Below, one piece after another: positions 1 to 51,223 of a stretch of DNA of 62,873 nt. Location of the stretch: IMG/VR virus record IMGVR_UViG_3300008886_000002, positions 1 to 62,873 of that record; one strand, 5' to 3'. Under the pieces are notes generated by a model, which was not told the DNA's origin, did no database searches, and saw nothing but the letters and a program-made list of their open reading frames with translations. Position 1 is the first letter of the stretch; every line of letters starts with the position of its first letter. A program made the translations under genes and the position numbers. The stretch comes from a virus.

Positions 1-55
1 ACCTGAAGGAAGGAGGTAACAATTCATGGCGTCCATCGCCGACGTGTTTTGTGAC
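1..55. repeat. 55-bp terminal direct repeat identical to 62819..62873 (circular-assembly overlap)
   Basis: nt 1-55 recur exactly as the last 55 nt. Genes run across the junction (chaperone stop at nt 4-6). The unique unit is 62,818 bp. Confidence 0.95.
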
Positions 56-3734: not shown

Positions 3735-4759
3735 GCGGCGCTTCCCGCCTCATCCGGGGCAGTGAGTACACCGGACTCGAGTGGCGATCACTGCCTCCAC
3801 GGTTGAAGGCCGAAGCGACCCGGTGGGTGTACATCGGCCCTGATGGGTCGTGGTGGGACCTGGAGGGGCGTGACGCCGGCAAGCAAGGCGTCCGCCTATC
3901 GCAAGGGTTGCAGGGCGCCTACCACCTGCCGTTCGAACAACTGTTGACTGAGGCTGCTTATCAGGTGGGTTCCACCTATGAGCGCACCAACATCAACAAA
4001 CGGGTCATCAACCTCGGTGTCGTCATCGGTGCCCGCAATCCCACCTTGAAGATGACGTCGGACGCGTACCGGCACATTGAGGCGAACTGGTGGAACGCGT
4101 GGCCGTACGACACCCCAGGTTGGTTGGGGTGCCACACCCGGTTCGGTGGGTGGCGTTGGGCGGCGGTGCAGTTGGCGAAACCCGTCGACACGACGGTGAA
4201 GATGGATCCGGCTGCGATGCAGAACAACGTGCAGCAGTGGGACATGCAAATCATGGCCGTCAACCCGTGGTATGCGAAGCGGACATTGGTGGAAACGTGG
4301 AAGGCGCACCCGGAAACGGTGGCGCAAAACGGTTTCGATGAGGAAACCATCACCATCGCCAACCGTGGCCACCTCGCGGCGTATCCACTGTTCATTTACA
4401 CCGGTCCTGGTCGGGCGTGGGTGCAGGACGGTATGACCAACAAACTTGTGGCGTTGCCGGTGTTGTCGGCGGCCGACAAGTACGGCTTGGTGGACACCGA
4501 CCCCGCCCATCGCACCCTGACTGGGGCGGTGGATCCGGTGGACAACATCTTCTACCAGTTCATCCGCTCGTCGAAGGTGTTGGATTTCTTCCTCCACGAC
4601 TTGGAGGCGTTGGGGTTGCCGTTGTGGCGGCGCGCCAACGGTATCCGGTTCACCTCTCCGATCCCTCCGAAGACCGTCGCGAACCTGCGGGTTCGCCATG
4701 ACACCGCGGGAGGCAGTGTGACCGTCCTTCTGCCGCAACGATTCATCAGGCCGGCGTGA
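3731..4759 (+). CDS. Minor tail protein (distal-tail-protein position)
   Basis: ATGA overlap with the TMP stop. It is the first gene after the TMP. 342 aa. Confidence 0.75.
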   Translation: MSGASRLIRGSEYTGLEWRSLPPRLKAEATRWVYIGPDGSWWDLEGRDAGKQGVRLSQGLQGAYHLPFEQLLTEAAYQVGSTYERTNINKRVINLGVVIGARNPTLKMTSDAYRHIEANWWNAWPYDTPGWLGCHTRFGGWRWAAVQLAKPVDTTVKMDPAAMQNNVQQWDMQIMAVNPWYAKRTLVETWKAHPETVAQNGFDEETITIANRGHLAAYPLFIYTGPGRAWVQDGMTNKLVALPVLSAADKYGLVDTDPAHRTLTGAVDPVDNIFYQFIRSSKVLDFFLHDLEALGLPLWRRANGIRFTSPIPPKTVANLRVRHDTAGGSVTVLLPQRFIRPA

Positions 4760-7041
4760 CTGAGCCACTGCGTTTCGCCCACAACGTTGGTGGGGTTTTC
4801 CAGTCGAAGGTCATCGGTGCGTTGGAGGCCCCTTTGCCGGCCAGTGACCCGATGTCGGCGTACCGGTATCTGAATTCGCGTCGGCAAACGTTGATCGATT
4901 CGACCCGCCAACGACCTTTGATCCGGATGCAGGACAAGAACCTCAATCAGTTGGCGACGATCGGGCAGGAAATGTCCTGCGTCACCGAAGAGATCGCCGC
5001 CGACTCGGGGTCAGCGACAGTTGTGATCCGCGGCGGCGACTACTTGGGGGACTTCGTCCGCAACGCCGTCAGGATCGAAGAGGATCTGCATTTGAGTGTG
5101 GATCCGATCGGGACGCAGCCGACGTGGAAGACCCGGTGGGGCGGGAAGATCACCAACATCGGGGTGAAGCGCGACTCTTCGGGCATTCATACGGTGGAGT
5201 TGACGGCGATCTCCAACCGCGAGCATTTGAAGAACATTCTGATTGCGAGCACTCCGTTGTTTCCGCCGGAAGTTCAGCCCATCAAATTGTGGATGCTGCC
5301 CGCGAACACTAGGACGGCGTGCGCGGTGACGTTGTGGATTCAGCTGTTGAGGGCGTTCTCCCCGTTCGCGTCGGTGCCGACGAACATCTTCAACCCTGCT
5401 GGGTGGATCAACCCGCTCGGTCCTGACGCGTTGTTGAATGTGCTGCCCACGAACTGGCCGATTCAGGTGCAGTTCGTCAACCCCTTGTTCGATCAGTCTC
5501 GGACGACGTTGTTGACGTCGGCGTGGCAGGACTTCCACACCTCCACGGTGGACATCTTGAAAGACGCCGGTGTGATGGCCCGCGCGTACACGTATTTCAC
5601 TGAGGACGAGGACAACCCGCACCCGGAGTTGGAGGCGATCGTCCCCGACGAGTTCGCGGACTTGGCCCGCCCTGGCCGCAACGCGGTCGTCGTGGCGTTC
5701 GAGGACCACTCGGGGTATTCGGGGCCGACGGGAACCGCGATCGACGGTGTCATCAACTTGTTCTCCTCCACATTGGACGACTTGATCACCGAGACGGTGT
5801 TCCCCATCGACTCCGACGACGACGGGGAAGTGGACCCCGTGTTCCGCAAGATCTTCGGGGTGGCGCCGGACCCGCCGTGGGCGGTGTACCGCGACGGTCA
5901 GGAGTCCGGGATCATCGAGTCCGGCTACTTCCAGCACAAGGGTCCCGTCAAGACCACCATGACCGGCGGTAAATCACCCAAGCTGGTGAATGATTTGCAG
6001 TGCGTGGCGGGTGACACGATCATCGAAGGCCCCGACGGGGATGAGCGGATCGACGTCCTCGCCGAGAGTGGGCGGTCGTTTCGAGTGTGGTCGATCACCC
6101 CCCAGGGGGTGCGGGTGCCGGCGACGGCGGTGACGGCGTTCAAGAAGGGTCAGGCGGAACTGTTCGCCTACACCTTGGACGACGGACGCAGCATCAAGGC
6201 CACCGAGGAGCACCGCTTCCTCACCGACTGCGGCTTCCTCCATGGCCGCGCACTGAAGGTGGGCGACAAGGTCGGCACCGTCGACCACGCGAACGTCACG
6301 GGTGTTGATGTGGCGGCGGCGTGGGATGTCCCGGACCGCTTCTACCAAAACATGATTCCCACGAAGGCGCTGACGTACCGGACGTTGGTCAGCGTCGAAT
6401 CGTTGGGTGTCGACGACTTCTACGACATGACGGTTCCTGGGTGGCAGAACTACTCCGGTAACGGGTTTTGGAACCACAACACGTTCGGGATCCGGTTCGC
6501 CCTGTCGCAACTGCAGTTGGTGGTGACCTCCGGTGTGTTCGGTCAGGCCGGCGGCCCACCATTGGGGGCAGGTCTCTCGGACCTCTACCAGGGTCAGCTC
6601 GACAACACACTGTTCAGTTGGGAGCGGTACACCAATCCCATCCGCGCACTGCTCACCGGCGATTTCGGTTACTTGGAGCGGGTGGAACGCGGAAACGGTG
6701 TCGCCTACACCATTTCCAGTTTCCTGACGTTGCGGACTGGGGATCAGAAGACGAAACCGTTCCGCGGTTTCAAGACCCAAATCCGCAACGGCGCCCCATA
6801 CATCATCAACCGCGACATCCTGCTCGATGACAGGGTGGGGTTCGAGGTGGACGGCATCTTGTACGTCGACCAGGTGGCGGCCATCCGGTACGAGTACGAC
6901 CGCGGAAAGCCCATCACGTACACGGTGTCCATAGGTGACGACACCCGTCACGACGACCCGATCGCGCAAGGATTCCGGGCCATCCAAGCGGGCGCATCCC
7001 TAGTCGGCGGATTGATAGGTCAAGACACCCTCTTCTCGTGA
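4756..7041 (+). CDS. Minor tail protein (tail-tip position) carrying an in-frame mini-intein
   Basis: GTGA overlap with the upstream stop. 761-aa ORF, second gene after the TMP. Hint-domain blocks are present internally. Confidence 0.85.
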   Translation: MTEPLRFAHNVGGVFQSKVIGALEAPLPASDPMSAYRYLNSRRQTLIDSTRQRPLIRMQDKNLNQLATIGQEMSCVTEEIAADSGSATVVIRGGDYLGDFVRNAVRIEEDLHLSVDPIGTQPTWKTRWGGKITNIGVKRDSSGIHTVELTAISNREHLKNILIASTPLFPPEVQPIKLWMLPANTRTACAVTLWIQLLRAFSPFASVPTNIFNPAGWINPLGPDALLNVLPTNWPIQVQFVNPLFDQSRTTLLTSAWQDFHTSTVDILKDAGVMARAYTYFTEDEDNPHPELEAIVPDEFADLARPGRNAVVVAFEDHSGYSGPTGTAIDGVINLFSSTLDDLITETVFPIDSDDDGEVDPVFRKIFGVAPDPPWAVYRDGQESGIIESGYFQHKGPVKTTMTGGKSPKLVNDLQCVAGDTIIEGPDGDERIDVLAESGRSFRVWSITPQGVRVPATAVTAFKKGQAELFAYTLDDGRSIKATEEHRFLTDCGFLHGRALKVGDKVGTVDHANVTGVDVAAAWDVPDRFYQNMIPTKALTYRTLVSVESLGVDDFYDMTVPGWQNYSGNGFWNHNTFGIRFALSQLQLVVTSGVFGQAGGPPLGAGLSDLYQGQLDNTLFSWERYTNPIRALLTGDFGYLERVERGNGVAYTISSFLTLRTGDQKTKPFRGFKTQIRNGAPYIINRDILLDDRVGFEVDGILYVDQVAAIRYEYDRGKPITYTVSIGDDTRHDDPIAQGFRAIQAGASLVGGLIGQDTLFS
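6001..6480 (+). other. Mini-intein (160 aa, no endonuclease domain) within the minor tail protein
   Basis: Cys1 in CVAGDTIIEG, block B TxxH in KATEEHRFLT, C-terminal FYDMTVPGWQNYSGNGFWNHN followed by +1 Thr. In frame with the host ORF. Confidence 0.85.
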
Positions 7042-7421
7042 ATCGTGTGGTCAAGGATGGCGTTGCTCGTCGACCAGATGGGACTGTGCGCCAGCGGGTG
7101 TGCAAGACGTGTCAGGCGGATGCTCAGCGTCGTCGTCGTGAGAAGCGCTTGACGACGTGTTCGAAGGGTCACCCGTTTGACGGTGTCGCCGTGCACGCCA
7201 ACGGCCTTAAGCGGCGTTATTGCAAACGGTGCAGGTCCGAGCAGGTCAGCGCGCAAATGACGAAGCGCCATGCGGAACGTACGCATTGCAAGCGGGGGCA
7301 TCTCATCGACGGCGTGAACAAGAATCAGCGGTTTTGCCGGACGTGTAAGCGGGACAACGCTGCCAAGCGTGCGGAGAAACCAAATGTGTGTGTGCTTGTG
7401 CGCGAAGTTAAACCGACTTAA
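7038..7421 (+). CDS. Cys-rich zinc-ribbon protein (HNH-accessory-like repeats, no nuclease core)
   Basis: GTGA overlap. Repeated C-x2-GH...R-x-C-x2-C units resemble the C-terminal tails of the NUMOD4-HNH proteins at 15172, 37474 and 47390. Confidence 0.6.
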   Translation: MNRVVKDGVARRPDGTVRQRVCKTCQADAQRRRREKRLTTCSKGHPFDGVAVHANGLKRRYCKRCRSEQVSAQMTKRHAERTHCKRGHLIDGVNKNQRFCRTCKRDNAAKRAEKPNVCVLVREVKPT

Positions 7422-7439
7422 CTGAAACAATAATTCTCG

Positions 7440-7468
7440 AAGGCCCTCACCAATGGTGGGGGCCTTTT
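7440..7468 (+). terminator. Rho-independent terminator (copy A of a repeated terminator-SD module)
   Basis: 12-bp stem aaggccctcacc/ggtgggggcctt with a 3-nt loop and a T-tract. Followed by gcatggaaggacg and GTG 7484. Confidence 0.7.
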
Positions 7469-7483
7469 GCATGGAAGGACGTC

Positions 7484-8985: not shown

Positions 8986-10214
8986 TGCCAAGAGCTGGAG
9001 ACGCATTCCTCAACGGTGCGCTGCCGATCAGCCATTCCCCACTGGATCGGCTGGACTACAACGCGCAAAGCCCCATCGCGGACCTCGAAGCGTTCCTCGA
9101 CGCGTTGAGCGAGTTCCTGGACGTCACGATCTTCCCCATCATCAAGAACTTGACCGGTATCGACTTGTCGTCGCCGGAGGCGTTCTTCGGGAGCCTGGTC
9201 GGGGTGGTGACCAACCCGGTGGGCGCGGTCCTGAACTTCGTGCAGGCGTTGATTCAACCGCTCATCGACCTGATCTTCAACGGGTTGACTGGCGGATCGA
9301 GTTTGGGTAATCCGTTGGAGTTGTTGCAGCCGTTGTTCAATGGGTTGCAGCGCGCCATCCAGACGGCCATCCATTCGGCGAACCAGGCGACCAACGTGGC
9401 GCGGCAGATGGCGCAGTACGTGGTGCAGATCGTGCAGTCGATCGAGGAAACCCCGGTGTTTGGGGACATCTTCAAGATGATTGATTCGTTCGCGTTTTGG
9501 GTGTTGGGGTGGTTTGGGATCACCAAGCAGTCGGTGACGCCGCAGAACCCGGCGGTGGCGGGGGTGATTGGTCGTATCTCGGCGTTGGAGTCTCAGGGGA
9601 CGGTGGGGTTGGAGGGGTTCTCGGACCACTTCGACCGCGCGTCGATTGGGACGGACTGGACGAACATCAGCCCGTATTCGGAGTTGACGTTGAAGGACGG
9701 CACCCATGTGAAGGGGTACGCCGTCAACGCTGGACGGTACACCGCGAAGACGTTGTTGACGGACAATTGGCATGTTCAGGTGGCGTTGCGGGACATGGAT
9801 TACGGCAACAGCCTGATGTATGCGTCGTGCCCCCCGGCGACCACGGACAGTGGATTCACCAACGGCATGTACATGAAGACCACCTACAACTATGGCGGTG
9901 TGTACTTCGAGGTGGGCTATCTGAATAGTGGTTTGAATGGTGGTGGCACACCGATGAAGTCGAACCATTACGACCTTGGGGTGGTGAAGGAAGGTGATGT
10001 GATCGCCGCGGAGTATTACACGGCGGACAACACGTTCTACTACTACCTCAATGGTGCGGAGATGACGGACCTGCGGTGGACGGACACGGGTAACAAGGTG
10101 TCGCATGGGTCGGGGCATCGTGAGGTGGTGTTGCTGAACTGCGGCACCAATTCCAGTCCGCAGTCGGGTCCGGGGTTCGATGATTTGTCGGCGTATGACA
10201 TCAAGGTGTCTTGA
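8985..10214 (+). CDS. Minor tail protein
   Basis: 409-aa ORF with TAATG coupling to the upstream gene. Located in the tail block. Confidence 0.7.
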   Translation: MPRAGDAFLNGALPISHSPLDRLDYNAQSPIADLEAFLDALSEFLDVTIFPIIKNLTGIDLSSPEAFFGSLVGVVTNPVGAVLNFVQALIQPLIDLIFNGLTGGSSLGNPLELLQPLFNGLQRAIQTAIHSANQATNVARQMAQYVVQIVQSIEETPVFGDIFKMIDSFAFWVLGWFGITKQSVTPQNPAVAGVIGRISALESQGTVGLEGFSDHFDRASIGTDWTNISPYSELTLKDGTHVKGYAVNAGRYTAKTLLTDNWHVQVALRDMDYGNSLMYASCPPATTDSGFTNGMYMKTTYNYGGVYFEVGYLNSGLNGGGTPMKSNHYDLGVVKEGDVIAAEYYTADNTFYYYLNGAEMTDLRWTDTGNKVSHGSGHREVVLLNCGTNSSPQSGPGFDDLSAYDIKVS

Positions 10215-12733
10215 CGTTGCCTAAGTGGGGTTTCGCGCAGGTCGATCAGCAGTGGTACAACACGCCCGATTTGTTGGCCGATGCGGAGCGCATGTACTCC
10301 GAGGTGAAGCCGTTGGCGCCGAAGTATTGGCGTATCGGTGCGGCGTGGGCGTTGATCGCGAAGCAACCCGACCCCGGCACCCTCATCGCCGGCACACCAC
10401 CCAGTTCGACGGGTCGTGACTGGACGACCTTGGATACGGCGTTGAATGAGGCCCTGTTGTTGGGGTCTGAGGTGGTGTTGATCCTTGGTGTCGCCAAACC
10501 GTATTGGGGTGGGGTGCGGATCGGGCCGTTCTCCTGGGGTGGGGTGTCCCCGTCGGCGGCGGATTTTGGGGTGTGGTGCGCGGAAGTCGTCCGACGGTAC
10601 AAGCCGGGTGGTCCCGGTATTCGCACCGACGGACGGTACGCGACGAACGGTCAGCTGAACCGTGGTGTTCGGATCTTCGAGATTTGGAATGAGGAGAACG
10701 ACCAGAACCACGACGGTGGGCAGATCAACGCGAAGGACTACACCGACCGCCTGGTCGCCGCGTATAACAGCATCAAAGCTGTCCCGGATCTGACGGGTAC
10801 CCCCACACCGGGGGTGAGCCCAGGTGTGGGGCAGTCGATGGTCATCTTCGGCGGCACCTACCATGTGCAGCGCATCGGGTCGTGGCTCGGATACGGCATC
10901 GCGTCCCTCCCCGAAATCGACTACTTGACGCAGTGCTATTCGTATGGGGCGCAGGGCAAGTTCGACGCGATGGCGGTCCACGTCTACCCGCATTTGGATA
11001 CTACTGGGTACAACGGTTCGGATGTGGGTCCGGTTCCGACGATGAACCTGGACAACATGCGCCAGTTGGTGGAGATCCGCCAGCTGATGGTGGATCAGGG
11101 TGATGGTGCGAAGAAGATTTGGGTCACTGAGGCGGGGTTCCCATGCTCGAATGTGACTGAGGCGCAGCAAAGCTCGTATTGGCAGCAGTTGTGGGGTTTG
11201 TTCGCGGCGTTGTCGTATGTCGAGGTGGTGTTGTTCTACTGCGCTCGCGATGGTGGCACGGACATGAAGAACGTGGAGTCGACGTGGGGGGCGATGCGTT
11301 ACGACTTCACTCACAAACCGGTGTGGGATTGGTTGGCGACGCTGTCGCCGGGGTTGAATGCTGGGTTCACATCGGAGGGCACGCTGTCGGCGTCGGTGAC
11401 CATTGGTGGCGCGAAGCCGGCGTTCACTGGTTCGGGGACGTTGGTGGCGAAGGCGTTGCAGGCCGTCACCCTGTCCCTGACGGGTTCTGGTGTGTTGTCG
11501 GTGACGGCGGAGAAGTTCGGGGAGAAGGCACCCGTCTTCACGGGGTCTGGAACGGTGTCGGCGACGGTTTCAGTGAAGATTCCGGTTGCTGCGCAACTGT
11601 CGGGTGAGGGTGTTGTGTCGGTGACGGTGTCGCAGACCGCGACCGCCGCCTTCACCGGTGACGGAACCCTGTCCGCGCAGGCCGGCGAGTCCGCGCCCCA
11701 ATTCACTGGTGAGGGCACGTTTACCGCAGCGGTGCAGCAGCCGGTCGTATATGACTCGCAGGGCACCTACACCAGCCAGTCCGGTGGCTCGAACAACAAG
11801 ACGATTAGCTGGGACCACACGATCACGTACAGCGATGCCAACACTTGGGTGTTCGTAGAAGTGGTGTACGGCCGCCCGAACGGTGTCAGTACCGGTGCGT
11901 CCACGGTCACCTATGGCGGTGTCACGATGACCTCGAAAGCTGCCGTTGACCAGGCTTTACCCGGTGGAAGCAGCGGGTCTCGCGGTGTTCGTGTCTTTGC
12001 ATTGCGGAACCCACCGACCGGGCCGCAAACCGTCTCGTACTACCAGCCTGGTGTGTCGAGCTTGAGCGGTAACTCGGTAGCCTTTCAAAACGCTGGCAGC
12101 GTTTCGTCAGGGATTACCGGCGCCAATAACAGCGGCACTACGGCAACGAGAATCCTCACGGGCGCTACGTCGGCGGGAAGCCGAATATCTGGTGTCTCGG
12201 CTGGCGCCCAAGCTGTGGCCAGTATCAGCGGTGTATCACGCGGGACTGTCGCCATTCAAGATGCCCCAGGTGAAGCGGATGGGTCAACTGACCTGGCGTG
12301 GTATCAGGGCAACGTTGGACAGTGGGTCACCGCGGGTGTAGTGCTCACTGCTGTAGCTCCACTGCCCTCTGTTGGTGCGAGTTTGGCCGGTTCGGGAACT
12401 CTGACCGCCACGGTGATCGCCAACCCTGTGGTTGCCCCCACCTTCACGGGTGCGGGCACCCTCACTGCCGCCACAGTGCCATCCCTGCCGGTATCCGCCG
12501 CTTTCACCGGCGATGGTGTGTTGACGGCCCTCCTTCAAGGCGGAGCGCTGTTCTCCTCCGTCGGCACCCTGTCAGCAGTTGTTTCGGCCATCCTCCGCGC
12601 CAATGCCACCCACAGCGGCACAGGCACTCTCACGGTCGTAGCAGCGCAAGCAGTCACCGCCAACTTCACCGGCACCGGCGCGGTCACCGCCGCCACCGGC
12701 TTCCCCTACACCTTCCCGATTACCCTGGCCTAA
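10211..12733 (+). CDS. Minor tail protein with N-terminal clan GH-A glycoside hydrolase domain and FTGxGTLSA repeat tracts
   Basis: TTGA overlap at the start. Contains FEIWNEEN (acid/base NE motif) and KIWVTEAGF (nucleophile TE motif). Two tracts of degenerate about 15-aa repeats. Confidence 0.8.
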   Translation: MTLPKWGFAQVDQQWYNTPDLLADAERMYSEVKPLAPKYWRIGAAWALIAKQPDPGTLIAGTPPSSTGRDWTTLDTALNEALLLGSEVVLILGVAKPYWGGVRIGPFSWGGVSPSAADFGVWCAEVVRRYKPGGPGIRTDGRYATNGQLNRGVRIFEIWNEENDQNHDGGQINAKDYTDRLVAAYNSIKAVPDLTGTPTPGVSPGVGQSMVIFGGTYHVQRIGSWLGYGIASLPEIDYLTQCYSYGAQGKFDAMAVHVYPHLDTTGYNGSDVGPVPTMNLDNMRQLVEIRQLMVDQGDGAKKIWVTEAGFPCSNVTEAQQSSYWQQLWGLFAALSYVEVVLFYCARDGGTDMKNVESTWGAMRYDFTHKPVWDWLATLSPGLNAGFTSEGTLSASVTIGGAKPAFTGSGTLVAKALQAVTLSLTGSGVLSVTAEKFGEKAPVFTGSGTVSATVSVKIPVAAQLSGEGVVSVTVSQTATAAFTGDGTLSAQAGESAPQFTGEGTFTAAVQQPVVYDSQGTYTSQSGGSNNKTISWDHTITYSDANTWVFVEVVYGRPNGVSTGASTVTYGGVTMTSKAAVDQALPGGSSGSRGVRVFALRNPPTGPQTVSYYQPGVSSLSGNSVAFQNAGSVSSGITGANNSGTTATRILTGATSAGSRISGVSAGAQAVASISGVSRGTVAIQDAPGEADGSTDLAWYQGNVGQWVTAGVVLTAVAPLPSVGASLAGSGTLTATVIANPVVAPTFTGAGTLTAATVPSLPVSAAFTGDGVLTALLQGGALFSSVGTLSAVVSAILRANATHSGTGTLTVVAAQAVTANFTGTGAVTAATGFPYTFPITLA
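11350..11740 (+). repeat. Degenerate tandem coding repeats (xFTGxGTLSAxV), first tract; second tract at 12376..12700
   Basis: AGFTSEGTLSA / AFTGSGTLVA / SLTGSGVLSV / VFTGSGTVSA / QLSGEGVVSV / AFTGDGTLSA / QFTGEGTFTA read in the translation. Confidence 0.8.
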
Positions 12734-12743
12734 AGGACACTCC

Positions 12744-13538
12744 ATGCCAGCACTACCCACAAACTTCACCACCGGTGGAACCCTGTCCGCCACGCAGTAC
12801 AACGCCACCAACGCTGCAGTGAACGGACTCAACCAAGCGGGAACTTTCGCGTCGCTCCCCGCAGCGGGGTTCCCGGGAGCCCTGTACCAGGCCACCGACA
12901 ACGGCAACCTGTACCGCGACAACGGCACCGCCTGGAACATCATCAGCATTGCCGGAACCGGACTCTCCGGCGTCGCTCCAGCCTCCACTGGCTGGTCCAC
13001 CACAACCTTGGGTTCATCCACATTCACCGCAGACAAAGATGGCTACATCCTCAACGCGGTCGCTGTCGGCAGCAACTCCGAGACGTTGCGCATGCAATAC
13101 CGCACCCTCACGGCGACGTCCAACTACACCGCCACGTTCTACATGGACTGGCAACTCGCAGGAGCGGTGAACAATGCCATGGTCATCGCAGTCGGGGACG
13201 GAACCAAGTGGGTAGACTTTGGCCTGCAGCGAGACGGTGGTACGTCTCTCCCCGACATCCGCGTCTTTCAACACACCAATGCCACCACCTACTCATCAAC
13301 GCCGTTCGCATTTGGGACAGCCAAATCGGCGTTGTACACCACCGCCCGTTGGTGGCGAATCCGCGACGACGGCACCAACCACTACTTCGGTGTATCCCTT
13401 AATGGGATTGATTGGGTCGAGGTGTACTCGCAGTCCCGCACTGCGTGGTTGACCCCGTCAGTCATTGGCTGGGGCGCCAACGTCTACGGGTCGAACTACA
13501 CGGCGTTGGCCAGAATGCGTTCGCTGACGGGCGCGTAA
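12744..13538 (+). CDS. Minor tail protein (receptor-binding-type)
   Basis: 264-aa ORF with an aaagga SD. N-terminus PTNFTTGGTLSATQYNA...LYQATDNGNLYRDNGTAWN is typical of actinophage tail-fibre-like proteins. Confidence 0.7.
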   Translation: MPALPTNFTTGGTLSATQYNATNAAVNGLNQAGTFASLPAAGFPGALYQATDNGNLYRDNGTAWNIISIAGTGLSGVAPASTGWSTTTLGSSTFTADKDGYILNAVAVGSNSETLRMQYRTLTATSNYTATFYMDWQLAGAVNNAMVIAVGDGTKWVDFGLQRDGGTSLPDIRVFQHTNATTYSSTPFAFGTAKSALYTTARWWRIRDDGTNHYFGVSLNGIDWVEVYSQSRTAWLTPSVIGWGANVYGSNYTALARMRSLTGA

Positions 13539-14669
13539 CCCAGTGGCGATCATCCACCCAAACGTCGTCACTGTGAGTAAGGGATATATCAGTGCGGCCC
13601 ACGCTAACCCTCCGGGACGGCTGATCTGGTTGGCCACCGGCTGCAACTGATCCAACGCATTTGGCACCGCCACCACCATCACGATGAGCCACACCCAGAA
13701 CAACACCCGCGCGCCCTTCGCCTGGCACCAGGTGCCGTTCCGCAGCCACATCACCAACGGCACCAACCAAACCCAATGGTTGGTCCACGACACCGGCGGG
13801 ACCAGCAACCCAAATATCATGATCACCAACAACGCTCCCACCGCATCCTGTCGGAGCATCCACCACGCGCCAACCGCAACCAGAAACGTGGCTGCGATGG
13901 CAACTACGACGAGAGCACTCATCCCCGGGTCGTAACCCACCACGCGGGCGATCCCAGCTCGCCATGACTGGTTGACGGTGTAACCCATTGAGAACAACGA
14001 GTCCCCGCCGATCCAATCGGTGAAGTAGGCGACAACTCGATTGCCCACCAGTGGATACGCCGCTAGCAGGGTGGCAAGGAACGCGACAACCGAGAACGTC
14101 ATAGCTGCCCAGCGCCGTCCCCCGCCGAAATAGAAGGCTGCGATGGCAGGAGTCAGCTTTACTCCCGATGCGACCCCTACGAGTAGGCCGGATGCCCACC
14201 ATCGTGTGCTGTAGGCCGCATAGAGAACGACGAGCATCAAGAAGACGCCGACGTTTCCCGACTTGATGTTCCCGACTATGGGTTCAAGCCATATACCGCC
14301 TGCCGTCCACAGCATCGCGGCCCGTGGATCGTTCCTCTTCATGAGCCGCAGAGCGATCCGCATCGACACATAGAGGGCGGCGACCACCGACACCCTCCAC
14401 AGAAACGTGACCAGCCAAAACGGCAACCAATGCAGCGGATAGAAAAGCATCGCCGCAAACGGTGGATAAACGAAAGGCAACGCGGTCATCTGGTCGATCC
14501 AGCCTGGCGTGTACATAACGGACGGTGCTTTCAATGCTTCGCCGCCAAAAACGTATACGTGCAGGTCACCTGCGTAGGTAAACGAGCTTGTCGCCAGCGA
14601 CCCCGTCGCGCTGACCGCTAGTAGCCACGGCGCCCCCCGCCGCCAATGGTCGACATTCACACGCTTCAA
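13458..14669 (-). CDS. Polytopic membrane glycosyltransferase, GT87/DUF2029-like (GT-C fold)
   Basis: 403 aa with many hydrophobic spans. Loop YAGDLHVYVFGGEAL...FVYPPFAAMLFYP resembles the PimE/Rv2181-type catalytic loop. It is the only minus-strand gene in the tail block and has an SD (gaggggga) before TTG. Confidence 0.7.
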   Translation of the reverse strand: MKRVNVDHWRRGAPWLLAVSATGSLATSSFTYAGDLHVYVFGGEALKAPSVMYTPGWIDQMTALPFVYPPFAAMLFYPLHWLPFWLVTFLWRVSVVAALYVSMRIALRLMKRNDPRAAMLWTAGGIWLEPIVGNIKSGNVGVFLMLVVLYAAYSTRWWASGLLVGVASGVKLTPAIAAFYFGGGRRWAAMTFSVVAFLATLLAAYPLVGNRVVAYFTDWIGGDSLFSMGYTVNQSWRAGIARVVGYDPGMSALVVVAIAATFLVAVGAWWMLRQDAVGALLVIMIFGLLVPPVSWTNHWVWLVPLVMWLRNGTWCQAKGARVLFWVWLIVMVVAVPNALDQLQPVANQISRPGGLAWAALIYPLLTVTTFGWMIATGLRARQRTHSGQRRVVRPVDVGAPAND

Positions 14670-14782
14670 CGAACTTCCCCCTCAATCCCGACGCTAACTC
14701 CTCACAGCGTGTGTGGGAAGCCCCCCAAACGCACCCTGACCCACCCGGTGTCAGGGGCCATCACCCAAGTAAAGGAAACATC

Positions 14783-15133
14783 GTGGCTATTGCCGTGACC
14801 GCAACCCGCAACACCCTCGCCACCTCCTACGGAACCGCCCTCTCCTGGATCGGCATCGCGACCGGCGACCCCGGCACCTCCGCCACCCCCGCCAACGAAG
14901 CCACCGGTGGTTCCCCCGCCTACGCCCGGAAGCAGACCACCTGGGGTACCGCAGCGTCGGGCGCCATCACCGGCAGCTCCGTCACCGTAGATCTTGCAGC
15001 AGGCACGTACTCGTTTGCCATCTTGGCTTCTGCGGCGACCGGAAATACGATGGGGGATAAGGTCAGCATCACGTCAACAACCCTTGGAACGCAAGGGCAG
15101 CTGGTCGTTACCCCAAGTTATACTCAGTCCTAG
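14783..15133 (+). CDS. Small tail-associated protein (hypothetical)
   Basis: GTG start 7 nt after the aaaggaaa SD, internal to track ORF 14711..15133. Ala/Thr/Gly-rich, 116 aa. Confidence 0.65.
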   Translation: MAIAVTATRNTLATSYGTALSWIGIATGDPGTSATPANEATGGSPAYARKQTTWGTAASGAITGSSVTVDLAAGTYSFAILASAATGNTMGDKVSITSTTLGTQGQLVVTPSYTQS

Positions 15134-15171: not shown

Positions 15172-15819
15172 ATGCATGACGAACCTCAGAAAGAGACTTG
15201 GAAGCCAATTCCGGGCTTTGAAGGCAAGTACGAAGTCAGTGATCTTGGTCGCGTTAAGTCGTTGCCAAGGACCATCCAACGGGGCGGTCACAACTACAGA
15301 ATTCGCGGACAGATTCTGAAGCAAACTCCAGATAAGGCGGGACGCCTGCTTGTGGGCCTCTACCCGGGGTCAGTTAGGCGGGGAAAGCTGCATTTCGTGC
15401 ACCGATTGGTGCTGGAAGCTTTTGTTGGTCCTCGTCCTGAAGGCATGGTCTGCTGCCATCACAACGATGTCTCTACAGACAACCGCCTGTGCAACCTTCG
15501 TTGGGACACCATGTCTGCCAACAACTATGACAAGGTTCGCAACGGTGGCGACCACAACGCGAGCCGTACCCATTGCGATTCGGGCCATGAGTACACCCCC
15601 GACAACACTCAAGTGTTGCTCAAGGGCGGTCGCCAGTGCATTGAATGCCATCGGCGTTACGTCCGTGAATACATGCGTCGTAAACGAAGCGAGCCGAAGA
15701 ACGCCGGTATTTGCGGCCAGTGCGGCAAGCCGCGAGATTCCGCACAGTTCAAGTGCTGCAGTAGATGCCGCGAGTACGCACGTGCATACCGGGCTCGTCG
15801 TAACGGGCAGACCGCGTGA
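15172..15819 (+). CDS. HNH homing endonuclease (NUMOD4 + HNH_3 type)
   Basis: WKPIPGFEGKYEVSDLGRVKS (NUMOD4) and VHRLVLEAFVG...CCHHNDVSTDNRLCNLRWDT (HNH), with a Cys-rich tail. Confidence 0.9.
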   Translation: MHDEPQKETWKPIPGFEGKYEVSDLGRVKSLPRTIQRGGHNYRIRGQILKQTPDKAGRLLVGLYPGSVRRGKLHFVHRLVLEAFVGPRPEGMVCCHHNDVSTDNRLCNLRWDTMSANNYDKVRNGGDHNASRTHCDSGHEYTPDNTQVLLKGGRQCIECHRRYVREYMRRKRSEPKNAGICGQCGKPRDSAQFKCCSRCREYARAYRARRNGQTA

Positions 15820-19735: not shown

Positions 19736-20908
19736 GTGCTGTCCAACCACATCCGCCACCCCCACGCCGCGACGCAATCGTTGACGTTCCGTGAGGTGGC
19801 GACCGCGTACAACTACCCGCTGACGAAGGCCACTGGGAAGGGTTGCCGTGTCGCGATCGCTGAGCTGGGTGGCGGGTTCACCATCGCGCAGATCGACGCC
19901 GCCCTGGCCAAGCAGGGGATCAAGCGGGGCGGCTTCCTCACTTCGGTCAACGTCGGCAGCGGCAGGAACCATGAGGACGGCCTGAACGGTGCTGACGGGG
20001 AAGTGCAGTCCGACATCCTCGGTGTCCTTGAAGTAGCACCCGACGCTGACGTGGTCGTGGTGTTCGGCGGCAACACCGACGCCGACTTCTACCAAGTCCT
20101 CGACTACTGCTTCACCCACGCCGACGTCGTCACCCTGTCGTGGGGTGGTGCGGAACCCGAATGGGACACGGCGACGATGGACCGCTTCGCCACTCGCATC
20201 CAAACCGCGGCGACTGCTGGTGTGCCGCTGTTCGTCGCCTCCGGGGACTCCGGTTCCGGCGACGGGGAGCGGTCGGCGTCGGTCGACTTCCCCGCCAGCG
20301 CACCCGCCTCCATTGCATGCGGTGGAACCCGGCTCACCATTGGTCCCGGCGGCGCCCGGATCAACGAGGTCACCTGGGACGACGAGCCCACCAGCTCGGC
20401 GACCGGTGGGGGGGTGTCGAAGCACTTCCCGGGCCGCGACGTCCCCGACGTTGCCGGTAACGCCGACCCCCAGACCGGGTACCAGGTCACCATCGACGGC
20501 CAGGACGCCGTCATCGGCGGCACCTCATTGGTCGCACCCCTGTATGCGGGCCTGTATGCGCTGCTGTGGGAACTGCTCGGCGGCAAGGCATTCGACTTTC
20601 GTGCCGCGGTGATCGCCAATCCGTCGGTGTGCTTCGACGTCACCTCCGGCAACAACGGTGCATTCCGCGCAGGACCAGGCCGCGACGAAACCACCGGCTT
20701 CGGCGTTGTCGACGGCGCAAAGCTCCTGACCGTGTTGCAGGCGTCCACACCCACAACCCCCACCCCGCCGGCCGCAACACCATTCCCCACCGCAGCCATC
20801 CGCACCTGGCTCACCGGCAAGCACAACCACACCAAAGCCGAATCAGCAGCCGCCACAGCCATCACCGCCTACGCAACCAGCCTCGGTATCAACGTCGGCG
20901 CCACATGA
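19736..20908 (+). CDS. Sedolisin-type (S53) serine-carboxyl peptidase, catalytic domain only
   Basis: ggagg SD plus GTG start. Motifs: GEVQSDI (Glu/Asp spaced 4 residues apart), TLSWGG, ASGDSGS, GGTSLVAP. Confidence 0.8.
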   Translation: MLSNHIRHPHAATQSLTFREVATAYNYPLTKATGKGCRVAIAELGGGFTIAQIDAALAKQGIKRGGFLTSVNVGSGRNHEDGLNGADGEVQSDILGVLEVAPDADVVVVFGGNTDADFYQVLDYCFTHADVVTLSWGGAEPEWDTATMDRFATRIQTAATAGVPLFVASGDSGSGDGERSASVDFPASAPASIACGGTRLTIGPGGARINEVTWDDEPTSSATGGGVSKHFPGRDVPDVAGNADPQTGYQVTIDGQDAVIGGTSLVAPLYAGLYALLWELLGGKAFDFRAAVIANPSVCFDVTSGNNGAFRAGPGRDETTGFGVVDGAKLLTVLQASTPTTPTPPAATPFPTAAIRTWLTGKHNHTKAESAAATAITAYATSLGINVGAT

Positions 20909-27784: not shown

Positions 27785-27949
27785 TGGTTCATCTTCTCCT
27801 CGGCTACCGACGCCGACTCCATGGTTGGCCCGTCGTCGTGGCTGTTTGACACTGTCAATGCTGCCTGACGTTTTCCCAGGTCGCATCGTGTCATTTCATG
27901 TCGTCAAAACCCTCCGAATGCGGTGTAATTGCAGGTCGCATTCATTTTC

Positions 27950-27979
27950 GGCCGGGTTCGATTCCCGGCAGCTCCACCA
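27950..27979 (+). other. attP core: 3' end of a tmRNA (or tRNA-Ala)-like gene
   Basis: ggccGGGTTCGATTCCCGGCAGCTCCACCA reads as T-arm plus 3' acceptor strand with U70, A73 and CCA. No matching 5' acceptor strand lies upstream, so it is a gene fragment and not a tRNA. Confidence 0.75.
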
Positions 27980-27992
27980 ATAGTAGCAGGTC

Positions 27993-28022
27993 AAGCCCCC
28001 AAACATGGGGGCTTTTCCTTTT
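27993..28022 (+). terminator. Rho-independent terminator following the tmRNA-like fragment
   Basis: aagccccc aaacat gggggctt followed by ttcctttt. It would terminate the reconstituted host gene after integration. Confidence 0.75.
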
Positions 28023-28065
28023 GTCAAACGCTTGTCAAAGCGGGTTTTGGGGTAGGGTCATTTTT

Positions 28066-28758
28066 GTGGCCCACCCGATCACCTTCTCTGACGTGCTGAA
28101 AGAGCCAGTTCAGGCCCGTTTCCGCAGTAACGTCCACCTCAGTGAATGGGGCTGCCTCGAGTGGCGTGGCGCTGCACCCGGCAGATACGGAAGCTGTCCG
28201 GTCAACGGCCGAAACGTCCCCGCCCACCGAGTGGCCTGGGTAATGCGACACGGTTGCGACATCCCCGACGATCTGGTCATCGATCACCTCTGCTGCAACA
28301 AGCGGTGCGTGAACGCCGACCACCTCGAGGCCGTCAGCGACGCTGAAAATGTCCGGCGGGTTCATCGTCCGCCGCGGGGGTGGAAGCCAGTGCCGGCGCC
28401 CATTCTGACGGCGATGGAGTATCGAGGTCGACGGTGGTGCGACGTGCAGTGGATCACCGCGCAGAACGGCAAAGTTGAGAAGCACATCAAAATGTTCGAC
28501 GATCCCGAACACGCAGCGGCTTTTGCGGCGCACCTGAGCAAGACCAAGCCGGGGTCTACCGTCGTCGAGGAATGTCCCCGCGATATCCGCGACCGGCTCC
28601 TTCGTGCCTACAACGACATCGGAGTCAGCGGCTGGTTACGAGAACCCCACCGCGATCTCGGCGGGGAGCGGCCGATTGACCTCATCCGCACGGGGCGTGT
28701 CGCCGAAGTACGTGCTGTTACCGAATGGCTGCTGTCGGTCAACCTCGGGGGTTCGTAG
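28066..28758 (+). CDS. HNH endonuclease fused to an AP2-like DNA-binding segment and an MbcA/ParS-type (DUF2384-like) C-terminal domain
   Basis: CLEWRG...AHRVAWV...VIDHLCCNKRCVNADHLE (HNH), YRGRRWCDVQWITAQNGKVEKHIKMFDDPEHAAAFAAH (AP2-like), and WLREPHRDLGGERPIDLIRTG. GTG 28066 chosen because the upstream part of the track ORF reads through attP and the terminator. Confidence 0.75.
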   Translation: MAHPITFSDVLKEPVQARFRSNVHLSEWGCLEWRGAAPGRYGSCPVNGRNVPAHRVAWVMRHGCDIPDDLVIDHLCCNKRCVNADHLEAVSDAENVRRVHRPPRGWKPVPAPILTAMEYRGRRWCDVQWITAQNGKVEKHIKMFDDPEHAAAFAAHLSKTKPGSTVVEECPRDIRDRLLRAYNDIGVSGWLREPHRDLGGERPIDLIRTGRVAEVRAVTEWLLSVNLGGS

Positions 28759-29876
28759 TGGCGTCGATACGAGCGAGGCAACGAGCGGACGGAACCACTG
28801 CCTACGCGGTGCTCTACAAGCTCGGAACAACCCAGACGGCGGCCACCTTCGACACGGAGGAGGCCGCCGTCGAGTTTCGTGACGCCGTCAACTCCATCGG
28901 CGCCGAACGCGCCATGCGCGGCTGGGGCATCGGCACCACCGCCCGCGCGCAACGCCCTAAAGGCCCGACGGTGGAGGAGTGGATACGTACCTACATCGAC
29001 TCCCGCACGGGCGTCACAAAGGCCACGCTGTTCGACTACAACGCCTACCTGAAGCACGACATCGCCCCTGAGCTGGGGAAGATTCCGTTGGTCGCCTTGA
29101 CCGCGGCGGACTGCCAGCAGTGGGTTCAGGTGATGGCGGCGAAGAAGCTCTCCGGGAAGGAGAGCACGTTGTCGGGGAAGACCCTCGCCAACCGGCATGG
29201 GTTTCTGTCTGCGGCGCTCAACGCCGCGGTGCGTGCGGAGATGATCCCGTCCAACCCGACCATCGGCACCCGTCTACCGCGCACCGAGAAGCAGGAGATG
29301 TGCTTCCTCACCCCCGACGAGTTCGACCTCCTGAAGCAGGGGTTCCAGGAACGGTGGTGGCCGTTCCTGTCGTTCATGGTCGTGGCCGGCACCCGGTTCG
29401 GTGAGACCACCGCCCTGAAGCCGTCGGACGTGAACAGGGCGGCGAACACCGTGTACGTCGGGCGGGCGTGGAAGCGCACCTACGACGCGAAGCGCTACGA
29501 GATTGGTGTCCCGAAGACCCGTCGCAGCATTCGGACGATCAGCGTTCCCCGCAAGGTGCTCGACCAATTGGACTATTCCCATGAGTGGTTGTTCGTGAAC
29601 ACCGCGAACAACCCGATTCGTGCGTCGGAGTGGCGGAACAACGTGTGGTACCCGTCGGTGGCGAAGGCGAAGGCTGCGGGTTTGACGAAGTCACCCCGGA
29701 TTCACGACCTGAGGCACACGGCGGCTTCGTGGATGGTTCAGCAGGGGAGGCCGCTGCCGGTGGTGCAGGCTCACCTCGGCCACGAATCGATCAACACCAC
29801 AATTTCGCTTTATACCCATTTGGACAGGGCGAACGCCGACGAAGCCGCCGAAGGGCTGGGGGAGTGGCTGCGCTAG
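28758..29876 (+). CDS. int: Tyrosine integrase
   Basis: TAGTG coupling at the start. HDLRHTAASWMV...AHLGHESINTTISLYTHL (R-H-R-Y catalytic region). Confidence 0.9.
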   Translation: MASIRARQRADGTTAYAVLYKLGTTQTAATFDTEEAAVEFRDAVNSIGAERAMRGWGIGTTARAQRPKGPTVEEWIRTYIDSRTGVTKATLFDYNAYLKHDIAPELGKIPLVALTAADCQQWVQVMAAKKLSGKESTLSGKTLANRHGFLSAALNAAVRAEMIPSNPTIGTRLPRTEKQEMCFLTPDEFDLLKQGFQERWWPFLSFMVVAGTRFGETTALKPSDVNRAANTVYVGRAWKRTYDAKRYEIGVPKTRRSIRTISVPRKVLDQLDYSHEWLFVNTANNPIRASEWRNNVWYPSVAKAKAAGLTKSPRIHDLRHTAASWMVQQGRPLPVVQAHLGHESINTTISLYTHLDRANADEAAEGLGEWLR

Positions 29877-34011: not shown

Positions 34012-34506
34012 TCAGCGTTGTTGATGGGGGTTATCGGTGTCGTCGAGGCCTCCATCGTCGCCCATGGACTTGATGGTTTCGTCCGTCAGGTCGCGAAGCC
34101 GGTCTCCCCCGCTCAGCTGCGGATTGTTTAGGTTCTTCTGGGCTTGACCCGCTTGGCCCGATGTTCCCTGTTGCGACGCTGCTGCCAAGGCATCTCGTAA
34201 TCCCTTCATCCGTTGTTGTATCTCGCCGATTAGTTCGTTGTCGCCGAAGGCGGTCACAGGCCGCCTGACTTCAGTCATTTGTGTGTCTTTGAGCTGAAGG
34301 AATCCTGCCGCGAGGAACGCCTCGATGACGGGGGCGCCGAGGGTCGCGACGAAGCGTCTGACGTCGTCGGCCTTGGCTTCTTGGCCGCCGCGCCACTTCG
34401 ACATGATGGCCCGGTCCAGGCCGGCGTCGAGCGCTACCTTCGTCGGTTTCTTGTCGCGCGCAGCAAGCTCGTTGTCGAGCCAATCTACGAGTCGTCCATT
34501 TGGCAT
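34012..34506 (-). CDS. Immunity repressor (HTH)
   Basis: Divergent from the Cro-like gene. KPTKVALDAGLDRAIMSKWRGGQ helix-turn-helix. ATG 34506 chosen so that the palindromic operators stay intergenic. Confidence 0.65.
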   Translation of the reverse strand: MPNGRLVDWLDNELAARDKKPTKVALDAGLDRAIMSKWRGGQEAKADDVRRFVATLGAPVIEAFLAAGFLQLKDTQMTEVRRPVTAFGDNELIGEIQQRMKGLRDALAAASQQGTSGQAGQAQKNLNNPQLSGGDRLRDLTDETIKSMGDDGGLDDTDNPHQQR

Positions 34507-34543
34507 AGGCGCAGCGTAACTAGATGGTTGACGCAACTCCACC

Positions 34544-34561
34544 GGTTGCGCCGTTGCAACC
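34544..34561. promoter_or_regulatory. Operator palindrome GGTTGC-N6-GCAACC (copy 1)
   Basis: ggttgc gccgtt gcaacc, a perfect inverted repeat. Confidence 0.6.
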
Positions 34562-34662
34562 ACGGTTGCTCAGAATTACGTCAGTGTCGTTCTGCACCTC
34601 GCGCGCCTAATCGGTAGGCGAAAGCCGCTAGCGCCTCTACCTAAAGTTGCTGAAAGATAACC

Positions 34663-36680: not shown

Positions 36681-37411
36681 CCCCGTCGCGTTTCCTGTCC
36701 GCTGCTGAGTTTGCTTGTAAGACGGTGCGTTCAATCGTGCGGGGTTCTGGTGCCCCAGTGCTACCCCCCCCGAATCATCCCGGCGCGGAGGCTCTTACGG
36801 ATAAAGAGGCTGAGGATGAGGTTTTGGCTCCTTGGTGGGTTCAGGCTGCGGTGGATGCGAAGGCTCGGGCGGAAACGCCGTTGTCCGCCACCTTCGACGA
36901 CGAACCGCCGGCCAAGTGCACCCATTCGTACGGCGACCTCGTCATGGACCCCGACACCGAGACAGGCACATGCAAGTGTGGGGTCAAGTTCCTGCTCAAA
37001 GTGTTTGGTCATGTAGCGGACGCGCCCTCGCCTTTCGCCGCTGCAGTTTCTGATGAAGTGCCGCGATGCACTAACTGCGATAAACGTCTCGGCGAGATAG
37101 CCGCATCCAGCGAGATCTTCCCCGGTAGTTTCTGCTCTGCCCGCTGCGTGTCGGTCGCCGAAGTGCGACAAGCGTTGAAGGATTCGCGCACCCAGTCTCC
37201 TGCACATTGCGCTCCTGCTACCGGCGCCCGTGCGGTTGAGGAAACGCCGGGAGGGTTGCCCCCCAACCCTCCCGGCGTGCAACCCCGATGCAAGTTCTGC
37301 CAGCAACAGATTTCACAGCTCGAGGACGGGCTGTGGTTCCACCTGGGGCGCAACCTGCTCCGTTGCGTCGACATCCCCGACTTCCCACCGACGTACGCGC
37401 AACCGGAGTGA
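36677..37411 (+). CDS. Hypothetical Cys-containing protein
   Basis: 244-aa track ORF, ATGA-coupled. Confidence 0.65.
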   Translation: MTPSRFLSAAEFACKTVRSIVRGSGAPVLPPPNHPGAEALTDKEAEDEVLAPWWVQAAVDAKARAETPLSATFDDEPPAKCTHSYGDLVMDPDTETGTCKCGVKFLLKVFGHVADAPSPFAAAVSDEVPRCTNCDKRLGEIAASSEIFPGSFCSARCVSVAEVRQALKDSRTQSPAHCAPATGARAVEETPGGLPPNPPGVQPRCKFCQQQISQLEDGLWFHLGRNLLRCVDIPDFPPTYAQPE

Positions 37412-37473
37412 AAAAGCGGCGCGGCCGGGGCAAGCCGACCGCGCCAGTAACACCAACAGAAAGGAAAGTTCCG

Positions 37474-37983
37474 TTGAGTACTGAGACAACTGTAGAGCAT
37501 GAAACATGGCGTCCTGTTGTAGGCCACGAATCCTCGTATGAGGTATCCGACCTCGGCCGCGTGCGATCTGTTGACCGGACCATCACCGATAGTCGGGGCA
37601 GATCTAGAAGGTTTTTGGGCCGAATTCTGAAGCCAGCAACAGACAGGGGTGGGTACCTATACGTCATTCTAAGTCCGGGAAAAAATCATGCCCCCGTTCA
37701 CAGACTAGTCCTAGGGGCTTTCGTGGGTGCTCGACCACCTGGGCTAGTTTGCCGGCACGGGAATGGAGATTGCCGGGACAACCGCATAATTAACTTGAGC
37801 TACAGCACTCATTCGGTGAACATCCGCGACAAGCGCGCGCATGGAACCGACCACAACATCAACAAAACGCACTGCCCGCAGGGCCATCCATACTTCGGCG
37901 AAAACCTTTACATCAGCCCCGCGCGACGTCGTTCGTGTAGGACGTGCACTCGGGCCAATAAGGCTCAGCAGGTGGCGTCATGA
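37474..37983 (+). CDS. HNH homing endonuclease (NUMOD4 + HNH_3 type)
   Basis: TTG start after the aaaggaaa SD. Contains WRPVVGHESSYEVSDLGRVRS, VHRLVLGAFVG...CRHGNGDCRDNRIINL and HCPQGH...CRTC. Confidence 0.85.
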   Translation: MSTETTVEHETWRPVVGHESSYEVSDLGRVRSVDRTITDSRGRSRRFLGRILKPATDRGGYLYVILSPGKNHAPVHRLVLGAFVGARPPGLVCRHGNGDCRDNRIINLSYSTHSVNIRDKRAHGTDHNINKTHCPQGHPYFGENLYISPARRRSCRTCTRANKAQQVAS

Positions 37984-49879: not shown

Positions 49880-49930
49880 AACGCCCTGGAAATCCCGGAG
49901 GCTCCTGACCTTGGAAACGAGGATGCAGGT

Positions 49931-50275: not shown

Positions 50276-50346
50276 TCACCTTCATCGACGACAACCGCGA
50301 GGAGTTCGGGGTCGAGCCCATCATCACCGTCCTGCACACCGCAGGG

Positions 50347-51192: not shown

Positions 51193-51223
51193 CTCGAGCC
51201 TCCGACAGAACCAGGGCGTTTCA

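Follow-up and report, generated by a model that had tools for sequence, protein, structure and literature searches.

We analyzed a 62,873-nucleotide stretch of viral metagenomic DNA, IMG/VR record IMGVR_UViG_3300008886_000002 (called the window below, meaning this DNA at its full length), which carries, inside a long block of plus-strand tail genes, one minus-strand gene for a 403-residue membrane protein of the GT87 glycosyltransferase family related to the mycobacterial mannosyltransferase PimE. The first 55 bases of the window are identical to the last 55 (1..55 and 62819..62873), an overlap left by circular assembly; the genome closed in this way spans about 62.8 kb (62,818 bp of unique sequence) and has no host flanks. 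The GT87 gene and its immediate surroundings are laid out as follows.

12744..13538, plus strand: gene for a 264-residue tail-region protein (phrog_19068), with homology reaching residue 261 of 264
13458..13538: convergent overlap, in which the last 26 codons of the GT87 gene run antisense to the 264-residue gene's conserved 3′ end
13458..14669, minus strand: gene for a predicted PimE-like membrane mannosyltransferase of family GT87 (GT-C fold); TTG start, 403 residues, intact open reading frame (ORF)
14565..14567, minus strand: GAC codon of D35, the predicted catalytic base, aligned to D58 of Mycobacterium abscessus PimE (MaPimE)
14670..14782: divergent spacer of 113 bp between the GT87 start and GTG 14783, the start of the 116-residue plus-strand gene
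14674..14683, minus strand: purine-rich Shine-Dalgarno-like sequence GAGGGGGAAG, ending 4 nt upstream of the TTG
14783..15133, plus strand: structural-block gene for a 116-residue protein (phrog_240), found directly after the tail genes in relatives

A preliminary description of this DNA, made from its letters, had already pointed to an antisense 403-residue polytopic membrane-protein ORF at 13458..14669, and the gene is there as claimed, starting at the TTG codon. Its 113-bp upstream spacer and its own Shine-Dalgarno signal (GAGGGGGAAG, 4 nt before the TTG) were likewise recovered; the automatic caller's alternative start, GTG 14660 (400 residues, P0001), lies 13 nt from that signal and fits it less well. 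The tail-to-tail overlap with the converging plus-strand gene at 12744..13538 is 81 nt long (13458..13538), as had been stated, and takes in 26 codons and the stop of the GT87 gene. The gene is also, as proposed, the sole minus-strand gene of the tail block, since all other credible genes between the terminase region and the end of the lysis cassette, a stretch that spans the circular junction, lie on the plus strand. A competing minus-strand call at 7020..7472 was discounted: it has no family hit, and the plus-strand ORF that overlaps it (7038..7421) matches HNH endonuclease families, so that the call is most likely a shadow ORF. Repeats flanking the GT87 gene were looked for and none were found, and predicted RNA structure was not significant for either a hairpin in the spacer (z = −0.5 and −1.05) or the overlap region (z = −1.6 and −0.3). 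A separate Logan contig (run ERR3150492) carries this GT87 gene with the same surroundings and junctions, which argues against chimeric assembly.

Profile and structure comparisons place the protein in the GT87 family, as the preliminary description had supposed. Pfam profile PF09594 (GT87) matches over its full length (positions 1-237 of 237; E = 2.8e-36; 125.9 bits versus a cutoff of 25), and residues 9-380 align with the cryo-electron microscopy structure of M. abscessus PimE (PDB 9dm5; E = 4.9e-82). An AlphaFold2 model (pLDDT 69, pTM 0.74) has the same PimE structure as its best structural match and superposes on it at template-modeling scores of 0.80/0.83 (E = 1.2e-18), and the suggested resemblance to PimE thus extends to the predicted fold. 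The next structural matches, all at E ≥ 9e-3, are glycosylphosphatidylinositol (GPI) mannosyltransferase I, ALG3, and the PIGU subunit of GPI transamidase, the last of which is counted outside the GT-C family in the PimE structure paper (PMC12041525). PimE itself (Rv1159/MSMEG_5149; M. abscessus PDB 9dm5/9dm7) shares with the phage protein the GT87 family, the GT-C(A) class, and a full-length alignment at ~41 to 43% identity. Model and alignment agree on a polytopic GT-C(A) architecture with the catalytic aspartate in the first periplasmic loop, at the tip of JM1, where the motif YAGDLHVYV carries D35; this residue aligns with the catalytic D58 of MaPimE, and the loop aspartate on which the first assignment had leaned is therefore conserved. 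The counterparts of residues with roles assigned in the PimE structure paper (PMC12041525), including contacts to the phosphatidylinositol mannoside (PIM) Ac1PIM5, are listed here as MaPimE residue, phage residue, and role.

D58, D35: catalytic base
Y62, Y39: partner of D58
Y92, Y68: donor phosphate region
K195, K171: donor phosphate
W319, W295: donor phosphate
H322, H298: donor phosphate
D55, deleted: contacts Ac1PIM5
D160, K136: acceptor side
Y161, S137: contacts Ac1PIM5
Q163, N139: essential (Q163A abolishes activity)
H321, N297: contacts Ac1PIM5
W361, N337: contacts Ac1PIM5

The catalytic aspartate at the JM1 tip, its tyrosine partner, and the Tyr/Lys/Trp/His set around the donor phosphate are thus common to PimE and the phage protein, and six acceptor-side residues differ, five by substitution and one by deletion. 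We aligned the phage protein with its 119 other best database homologs, six neighboring paralogs, and MaPimE; it keeps 39 of the 40 positions that are invariant across all 126 cellular PimE-like relatives and 99 of the 105 that are invariant in its own paralog group, and it is therefore probably still an enzyme. The picture suggested by these comparisons is one of a conserved catalytic and donor half joined to a rewritten acceptor half.

The same alignment separates the protein from PimE proper. The PimE structure paper (PMC12041525) reports that residues important for function show strict conservation among PimE homologs and that the Q163A change is inactivating; of that strict set (D58, Y62, Y92, D160, Q163, K195, W319, H321, H322), the phage protein departs at three positions (D160K, Q163N, H321N), and it keeps 96 of the 140 PimE-invariant positions. 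Canonical PimE proteins bear the signature D160-Y161-Q163...H321-H322...W361, versus K160...T/N163...A/N321-H322...N361 in the phage protein and its nearest relatives, which we call K-type (examples are P0002, P0004, P0007, and P0008). A PimE clade of 63 sequences, MaPimE among them, excluded the phage protein in 200 of 200 bootstraps, and the phage protein was sister to P0002 in 196 of 200. Given this clade exclusion and the changed acceptor-side residues, the protein is not a PimE ortholog and belongs to a PimE-like paralog group. The likeness to PimE first proposed for it therefore stands for sequence, predicted fold, and loop aspartate and does not extend to orthology. As for the other comparison then offered, Rv2181, the best 120 homologs are all PimE-like, which suggests that the phage protein is nearer to PimE than to that enzyme.

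The NCBIfam "equivalog" model for PimE, NF009915, scores the phage protein at 425.3 bits against a cutoff of 413. We rejected this score as proof of PimE identity because paralogs exceed the cutoff too: canonical PimE reaches 704 bits, other paralogs 580 to 594, and the K-type group 486 to 490, with the phage protein near the bottom. As a separate observation, the model accepts clear paralogs that lack the PimE acceptor residues at 421 to 594 bits, so that "mannosyltransferase/PimE" annotations in genomes are over-propagated.

Closest to the phage gene are chromosomal homologs from environmental mycobacteria (M. hodleri, M. llatzerense, M. mucogenicum, M. frederiksbergense, Mycobacterium/Mycolicibacterium sp. 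CBMA strains, and metagenome-assembled genomes), at 50 to 60% identity with a maximum of 60%. At no fewer than 8 loci (≥8), a K-type gene lies a few kilobases downstream of the dnaK operon together with 1 to 3 further GT87 paralogs, usually with an AT3-SGNH O-acyltransferase; P0002, the closest relative, also adjoins such an acyltransferase. Genomes with a K-type paralog carry other PimE-like genes as well. None of the 56 cellular loci examined for prophage context shares any other protein of the window (0/56), and a literature search found no published characterization of these PimE paralogs. The locus type is itself a conserved and apparently uncharacterized feature of environmental Mycolicibacterium, with two to four PimE-like GT87 paralogs a few kilobases downstream of dnaK-grpE-dnaJ-hspR (L002 10001..16309, and likewise in L008, L009, L010, L011, L013, and L017).

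In contrast to these multigene, dnaK-linked clusters, the phage has a single gene without partners, a lower GC content at third codon positions (GC3), and a new C-terminal tail. The gene is 60.1% GC with a GC3 of 0.72, close to the window as a whole (61.2% GC), and its cellular homologs average 64.7% GC with a GC3 of 0.82; phage-like composition and the 60% identity ceiling together suggest an old capture or a long residence in phage. Homology to PimE stops at about residue 380-388, where the converging 264-residue gene ends, and the last ~23 residues form a new basic tail antisense to that gene. These comparisons are best explained by capture of the gene from a cellular PimE-like paralog of the kind that normally resides in an environmental Mycolicibacterium locus with multiple GT87 genes and an O-acyltransferase.

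We compared the tail block with that of L063, a 10-kb Joint Genome Institute contig that ends before the lysis genes, by tblastn of the window's tail genes. Nine tail-block genes are common to both in the same order, at 38 to 76% protein identity (the last shared L063 gene at 68% over the 28 residues that it has on the contig). In L063 only 61 bp separate the glycanase-like tail gene from the counterpart of the 116-residue gene, and the 264-residue and GT87 genes are missing. Two features of the window frame this difference.

10211..12733, plus strand: 840-residue tail protein; its N-terminal ~380 residues (~10211..11350) form a clan GH-A, PslG/GH39-like glycoside hydrolase domain
~12356..14782: module variable relative to L063, comprising the C-terminal ~125 residues of the 840-residue protein, the 264-residue gene, and the GT87 gene

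Because the 264-residue and GT87 genes are absent from the syntenic L063, they form an accessory module. The preliminary description had proposed a moron inserted among the tail genes, and this presence/absence polymorphism agrees with a moron-like insertion; as for other moron traits, the gene has its own Shine-Dalgarno sequence and opposite orientation, but its composition resembles that of the phage where a moron's would differ from its neighbors', and no consensus promoter or terminator was seen. More distant comparators are all-forward in this region (Logan contigs L061 and L062, phage Dove, and the M. abscessus prophage prophiFSQJ01-1). An IMG/VR scan with the 264-residue protein gave no match.

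The GT87 gene lies in the variable module at the distal end of the 840-residue tail protein, whose hydrolase domain matches GH39wh2 (PDB 5jvk, a GH39 enzyme; E = 1.3e-8) in an alignment that brings both catalytic motifs into register. These motifs, W159-N160-E161 (WNE) and T306-E307 (TE), are invariant among the protein's family, and distant homologs bear GH5 and GH39 domains. An AlphaFold2 model of the domain (pLDDT 78) has PslG (5bx9) as its best Foldseek match (E = 1.1e-15). The C-terminal half consists of Gly/Thr/Ser-rich repeats, and its last ~125 residues differ from L063. From the modeled domain, the phage tail appears to be glycan directed.

The remaining gene content is that of a temperate phage related to mycobacteriophages. 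DNA similarity to known mycobacteriophages is patchy (lysin A, lysin B, terminase, and a recombinase), and two genes bear on lifestyle.

28725..29876, plus strand: tyrosine integrase (Pfam Phage_integrase, E = 2.2e-22), with homologs in phages Taj and Squirty
34012..34563, minus strand: candidate immunity repressor (phrog_3949 transcriptional repressor, E = 2e-23)

An antirepressor and helix-turn-helix proteins are also encoded, and the combination of integrase, repressor, and antirepressor marks a new phage of temperate type. Lysin B and the other mycobacteriophage matches, the relatives of the integrase, and the nearest GT87 homologs point to Mycobacterium or Mycolicibacterium as host.

Several other features of the genome were noted. 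An IS3-family insertion sequence at ~49877..51223 (OrfA 49931..50275; OrfB 50347..51192) is 82% identical to IS1601 of Mycobacterium avium and hints at residence in a mycobacterial host. Free-standing HNH-type endonuclease genes are unusually many, two of them found by profile search and the rest candidates judged by eye (7038..7421, 15172..15819, 27898..28758, 37288..37983, 42040..42399, 47390..47914, 51709..52407, and 52661..52945). A Sipho_Gp37-like minor tail protein (4756..7041) holds an intein at ~6076..6480 (Pfam Intein_splicing, E = 2.7e-10, residues 441-575); in the L063 counterpart the two exteins are contiguous, and the two HNH genes of the tail block are likewise missing there along with the intein. 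Between the tail genes and the lysis cassette lies a subtilase gene (19736..20908; Peptidase_S8, E = 1e-9).

The preliminary description knew of no characterized GT-C enzyme in this role in a mycolata phage, and we found no GT-C enzyme, characterized or merely annotated, in any verified phage record searched. Megablast of the GT87 gene against 50,697 phage records returned nothing, two pattern-seeded IMG/VR scans of 2.9 million contigs (one with the single sequence, one with a profile) yielded no GT87, and neither PHROGs nor BFVD held a GT87/PimE-like match. A tblastn search of the phage records gave one hit, at 30% identity, to MT835771, which we rejected as a phage with GT87: it is an "UNVERIFIED," unannotated fecal scaffold on which 9 of 10 neighboring ORFs have no PHROG hit. 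This record (MT835771.1, from human feces; L058 5836..7140) does encode a GT87-domain protein (E = 5e-48), with no phage hallmark genes detected nearby, and may represent actinobacterial DNA in a virome. Our literature search found no paper pairing a mycobacteriophage with GT87, or DUF2029 with a phage function.

The comparisons above establish the fold, the catalytic and donor residues, the paralog membership, the accessory status of the gene, and the temperate gene content; enzymatic activity, acceptor, expression timing, and phenotype are our inference. Our preferred reading, in which belief and doubt are evenly balanced, is that the protein may be an active inverting GT-C mannosyltransferase serving lysogenic conversion, which mannosylates an envelope glycoconjugate and thereby is likely to alter phage adsorption. 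The enzyme would be a plasma-membrane protein whose active site faces the periplasm, as that of PimE does (PMC12041525), would draw mannose from host polyprenyl-phosphate-mannose, and would transfer it with inversion, D35 acting as base, onto a mannose-containing envelope glycoconjugate, an acceptor probably other than Ac1PIM4. To reach the tail and lysis genes further downstream, late transcription would have to cross the GT87 gene in antisense; given that orientation relative to the late operon and the gene's own ribosome-binding site, expression would be most plausible in a lysogen. A surface glycolipid or lipoglycan of the lysogen would be changed as a result, in a one-gene equivalent of Gtr-type conversion, with altered adsorption of the phage's own kind or of other phages as the likely pay-off.

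Prophage modification of surface glycans is well known in Gram-negative bacteria and some Firmicutes, and the gtrABC systems of temperate Shigella and Salmonella phages offer the closest functional parallel: GtrC is a polytopic GT-C enzyme that uses a lipid-phosphate-linked sugar on the membrane's outer face to decorate a surface glycan. The GT87 protein is likewise a GT-C enzyme from a temperate phage (as judged here from its integrase, repressor, and antirepressor genes), and the pairing, in P22-type phages, of Gtr modification with a tailspike that cuts the modified glycan may have its analog in the PslG/GH39-like tail domain. It differs in family (GT87), in donor (polyprenyl-phosphate-mannose), and in its probable host, a member of the mycolata without O-antigen. 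Whereas gtr is a three-gene unit next to int and the phage attachment site attP, the phage described here has a single gene in the tail block, with the integrase 14 kb away and no GtrA or GtrB; such partners would be superfluous in mycobacteria, which produce the lipid-linked donor themselves and present it on the periplasmic side. The GT87 enzymes Rv2181 and MptC, alpha-(1,2)-mannosyltransferases that branch lipomannan (LM) and lipoarabinomannan (LAM) with the same donor, make lipoglycan decoration a plausible alternative class of acceptor for the phage enzyme. Mycobacteriophages do encode other glycosyltransferases, Che8 gp110 and Corndog gp38, which glycosylate their own capsid and tail proteins; those are soluble cytoplasmic enzymes rather than membrane GT-C proteins, and an enzyme whose predicted active site faces the periplasm could not serve cytoplasmic virion assembly in the same way.

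A more specific proposal, which we put forward tentatively as possible, is that this would be the first Gtr-like seroconversion in a mycolata phage, the GT87 enzyme mannosylating the very receptor or shield glycan that the glycan-directed tail module of the phage itself recognizes. If so, the enzyme would travel with a host-range cassette formed by the tip of the glycanase tail protein and the 264-residue protein, the candidate glycan would be LM/LAM, PIM, or an unrecognized mannan, and a mannosylated envelope glycan would act as a mycobacteriophage receptor; the multi-GT87 loci of environmental mycobacteria would also gain a function.

A number of observations weigh against lysogenic conversion by an active enzyme. 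Q163, essential in MaPimE, is Asn in the phage protein, and the sole family-invariant loss is W377 (MaPimE numbering), which is Gly. W377 adjoins periplasmic loop 3, which orders on product binding (PMC12041525), and its change appears again to fall on the acceptor side; with W377G and Q163N together, activity may be reduced or altered. A sigma-70 consensus scan found no promoter for the GT87 gene and no flanking terminator was found; the spacer holds one −10-like hexamer, TAGCGT (14696..14691, minus strand), and a lone TANNNT has little information content. The gene does not adjoin the integrase or attP as gtr clusters do, and its only known occurrences are in a single metagenome contig and a single sequencing run. 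Clan GH-A enzymes mostly cut beta-linkages and GT87 enzymes make alpha-mannosides, a mismatch in linkage type for the hypothesis, drawn by analogy, that the tail glycanase and the GT87 enzyme might share a substrate.

Other explanations share parts of this evidence. Lysogenic conversion could instead benefit the host through permeability, stress or antibiotic tolerance, biofilm formation, or interaction with predators or the immune system, a view that is compatible with our preferred reading and draws on the same structural evidence; loss of PimE alters antibiotic and copper sensitivity and cell morphology (PMC12041525), and several environmental species retain the cellular paralogs on their chromosomes. 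We consider it unlikely to be the explanation here, since the gene lies beside a glycan-directed tail protein, in the tail module's variable host-range end, a location that points to adsorption. A role in the lytic cycle, with the enzyme draining polyprenyl-phosphate-mannose or decaprenyl phosphate or altering LM/LAM to aid lysis, or modifying debris against re-adsorption, has a similarly low probability in our judgment. In Corynebacterium glutamicum, LM/LAM hinders lysis by phages, which carry LysZ as a dedicated counter-factor, and the GT87 gene does lie in the late region, ~6.7 kb upstream of lysin A. However, late transcription would run antisense to it, it stands outside the lysis cassette, it retains a complete biosynthetic active site, and the tail block of L063 is intact without it (that contig ending before the lysis genes).

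It is improbable that the gene is an auxiliary metabolic gene for a true PimE isoenzyme, an alpha-1,2-mannosyltransferase converting Ac1PIM4 to Ac1PIM5 and boosting or restoring synthesis of higher PIMs in the infected or lysogenic cell. The NF009915 score above cutoff (425.3 versus 413 bits), PimE as the best match among solved structures, and the conserved catalytic and donor-binding residues would all fit such an enzyme, but NF009915 does not separate paralogs, the PimE clade excludes the phage protein in 200/200 bootstraps, and just 96 of 140 PimE-invariant positions are kept. The acceptor side of PimE is altered as well (D160K, Y161S, Q163N, H321N, and W361N, with D55 deleted), whereas the PimE structure paper reports strict conservation of functionally important residues among PimE homologs and an inactive Q163A mutant (PMC12041525), and genomes with a K-type paralog have other PimE-like genes too. 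Least probable is a nonfunctional passenger, decaying capture, or assembly artifact, for which the single metagenome contig and sequencing run, the lost universal Trp, and the novel C-terminal tail antisense to another gene might speak, given the intact 403-codon ORF with 39/40 and 99/105 invariant positions kept, its phage-like composition and own Shine-Dalgarno sequence, the same junctions on a separate Logan contig, and the closure of the window by its 55-bp overlap.

To our knowledge, most mycobacterial phage receptors are unidentified, and thousands of sequenced phages are without an annotated membrane GT-C enzyme; our literature search found no report of prophage-encoded modification of surface glycans in mycobacteria. 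The gene described here differs from PimE, which sits at the chromosomal pimE locus, in being phage encoded, outside the PimE clade, and Gly at W377. On the evidence of one metagenomic phage, it would add a new member to GT87 and bring prophage modification of surface glycans to a host group without a described case. It carries a practical warning that the NCBIfam PimE "equivalog" model labels paralogs as PimE, and it may provide a handle on the products of the PimE paralog clusters. As a natural GT87 variant with the donor site intact and the acceptor site rewritten, it may also illustrate how acceptor specificity changes in GT87 enzymes, and, for the biology of mycobacteria and their phages, it would offer a handle on whether mannosylated envelope lipids and lipoglycans act as mycobacteriophage receptors or shields.

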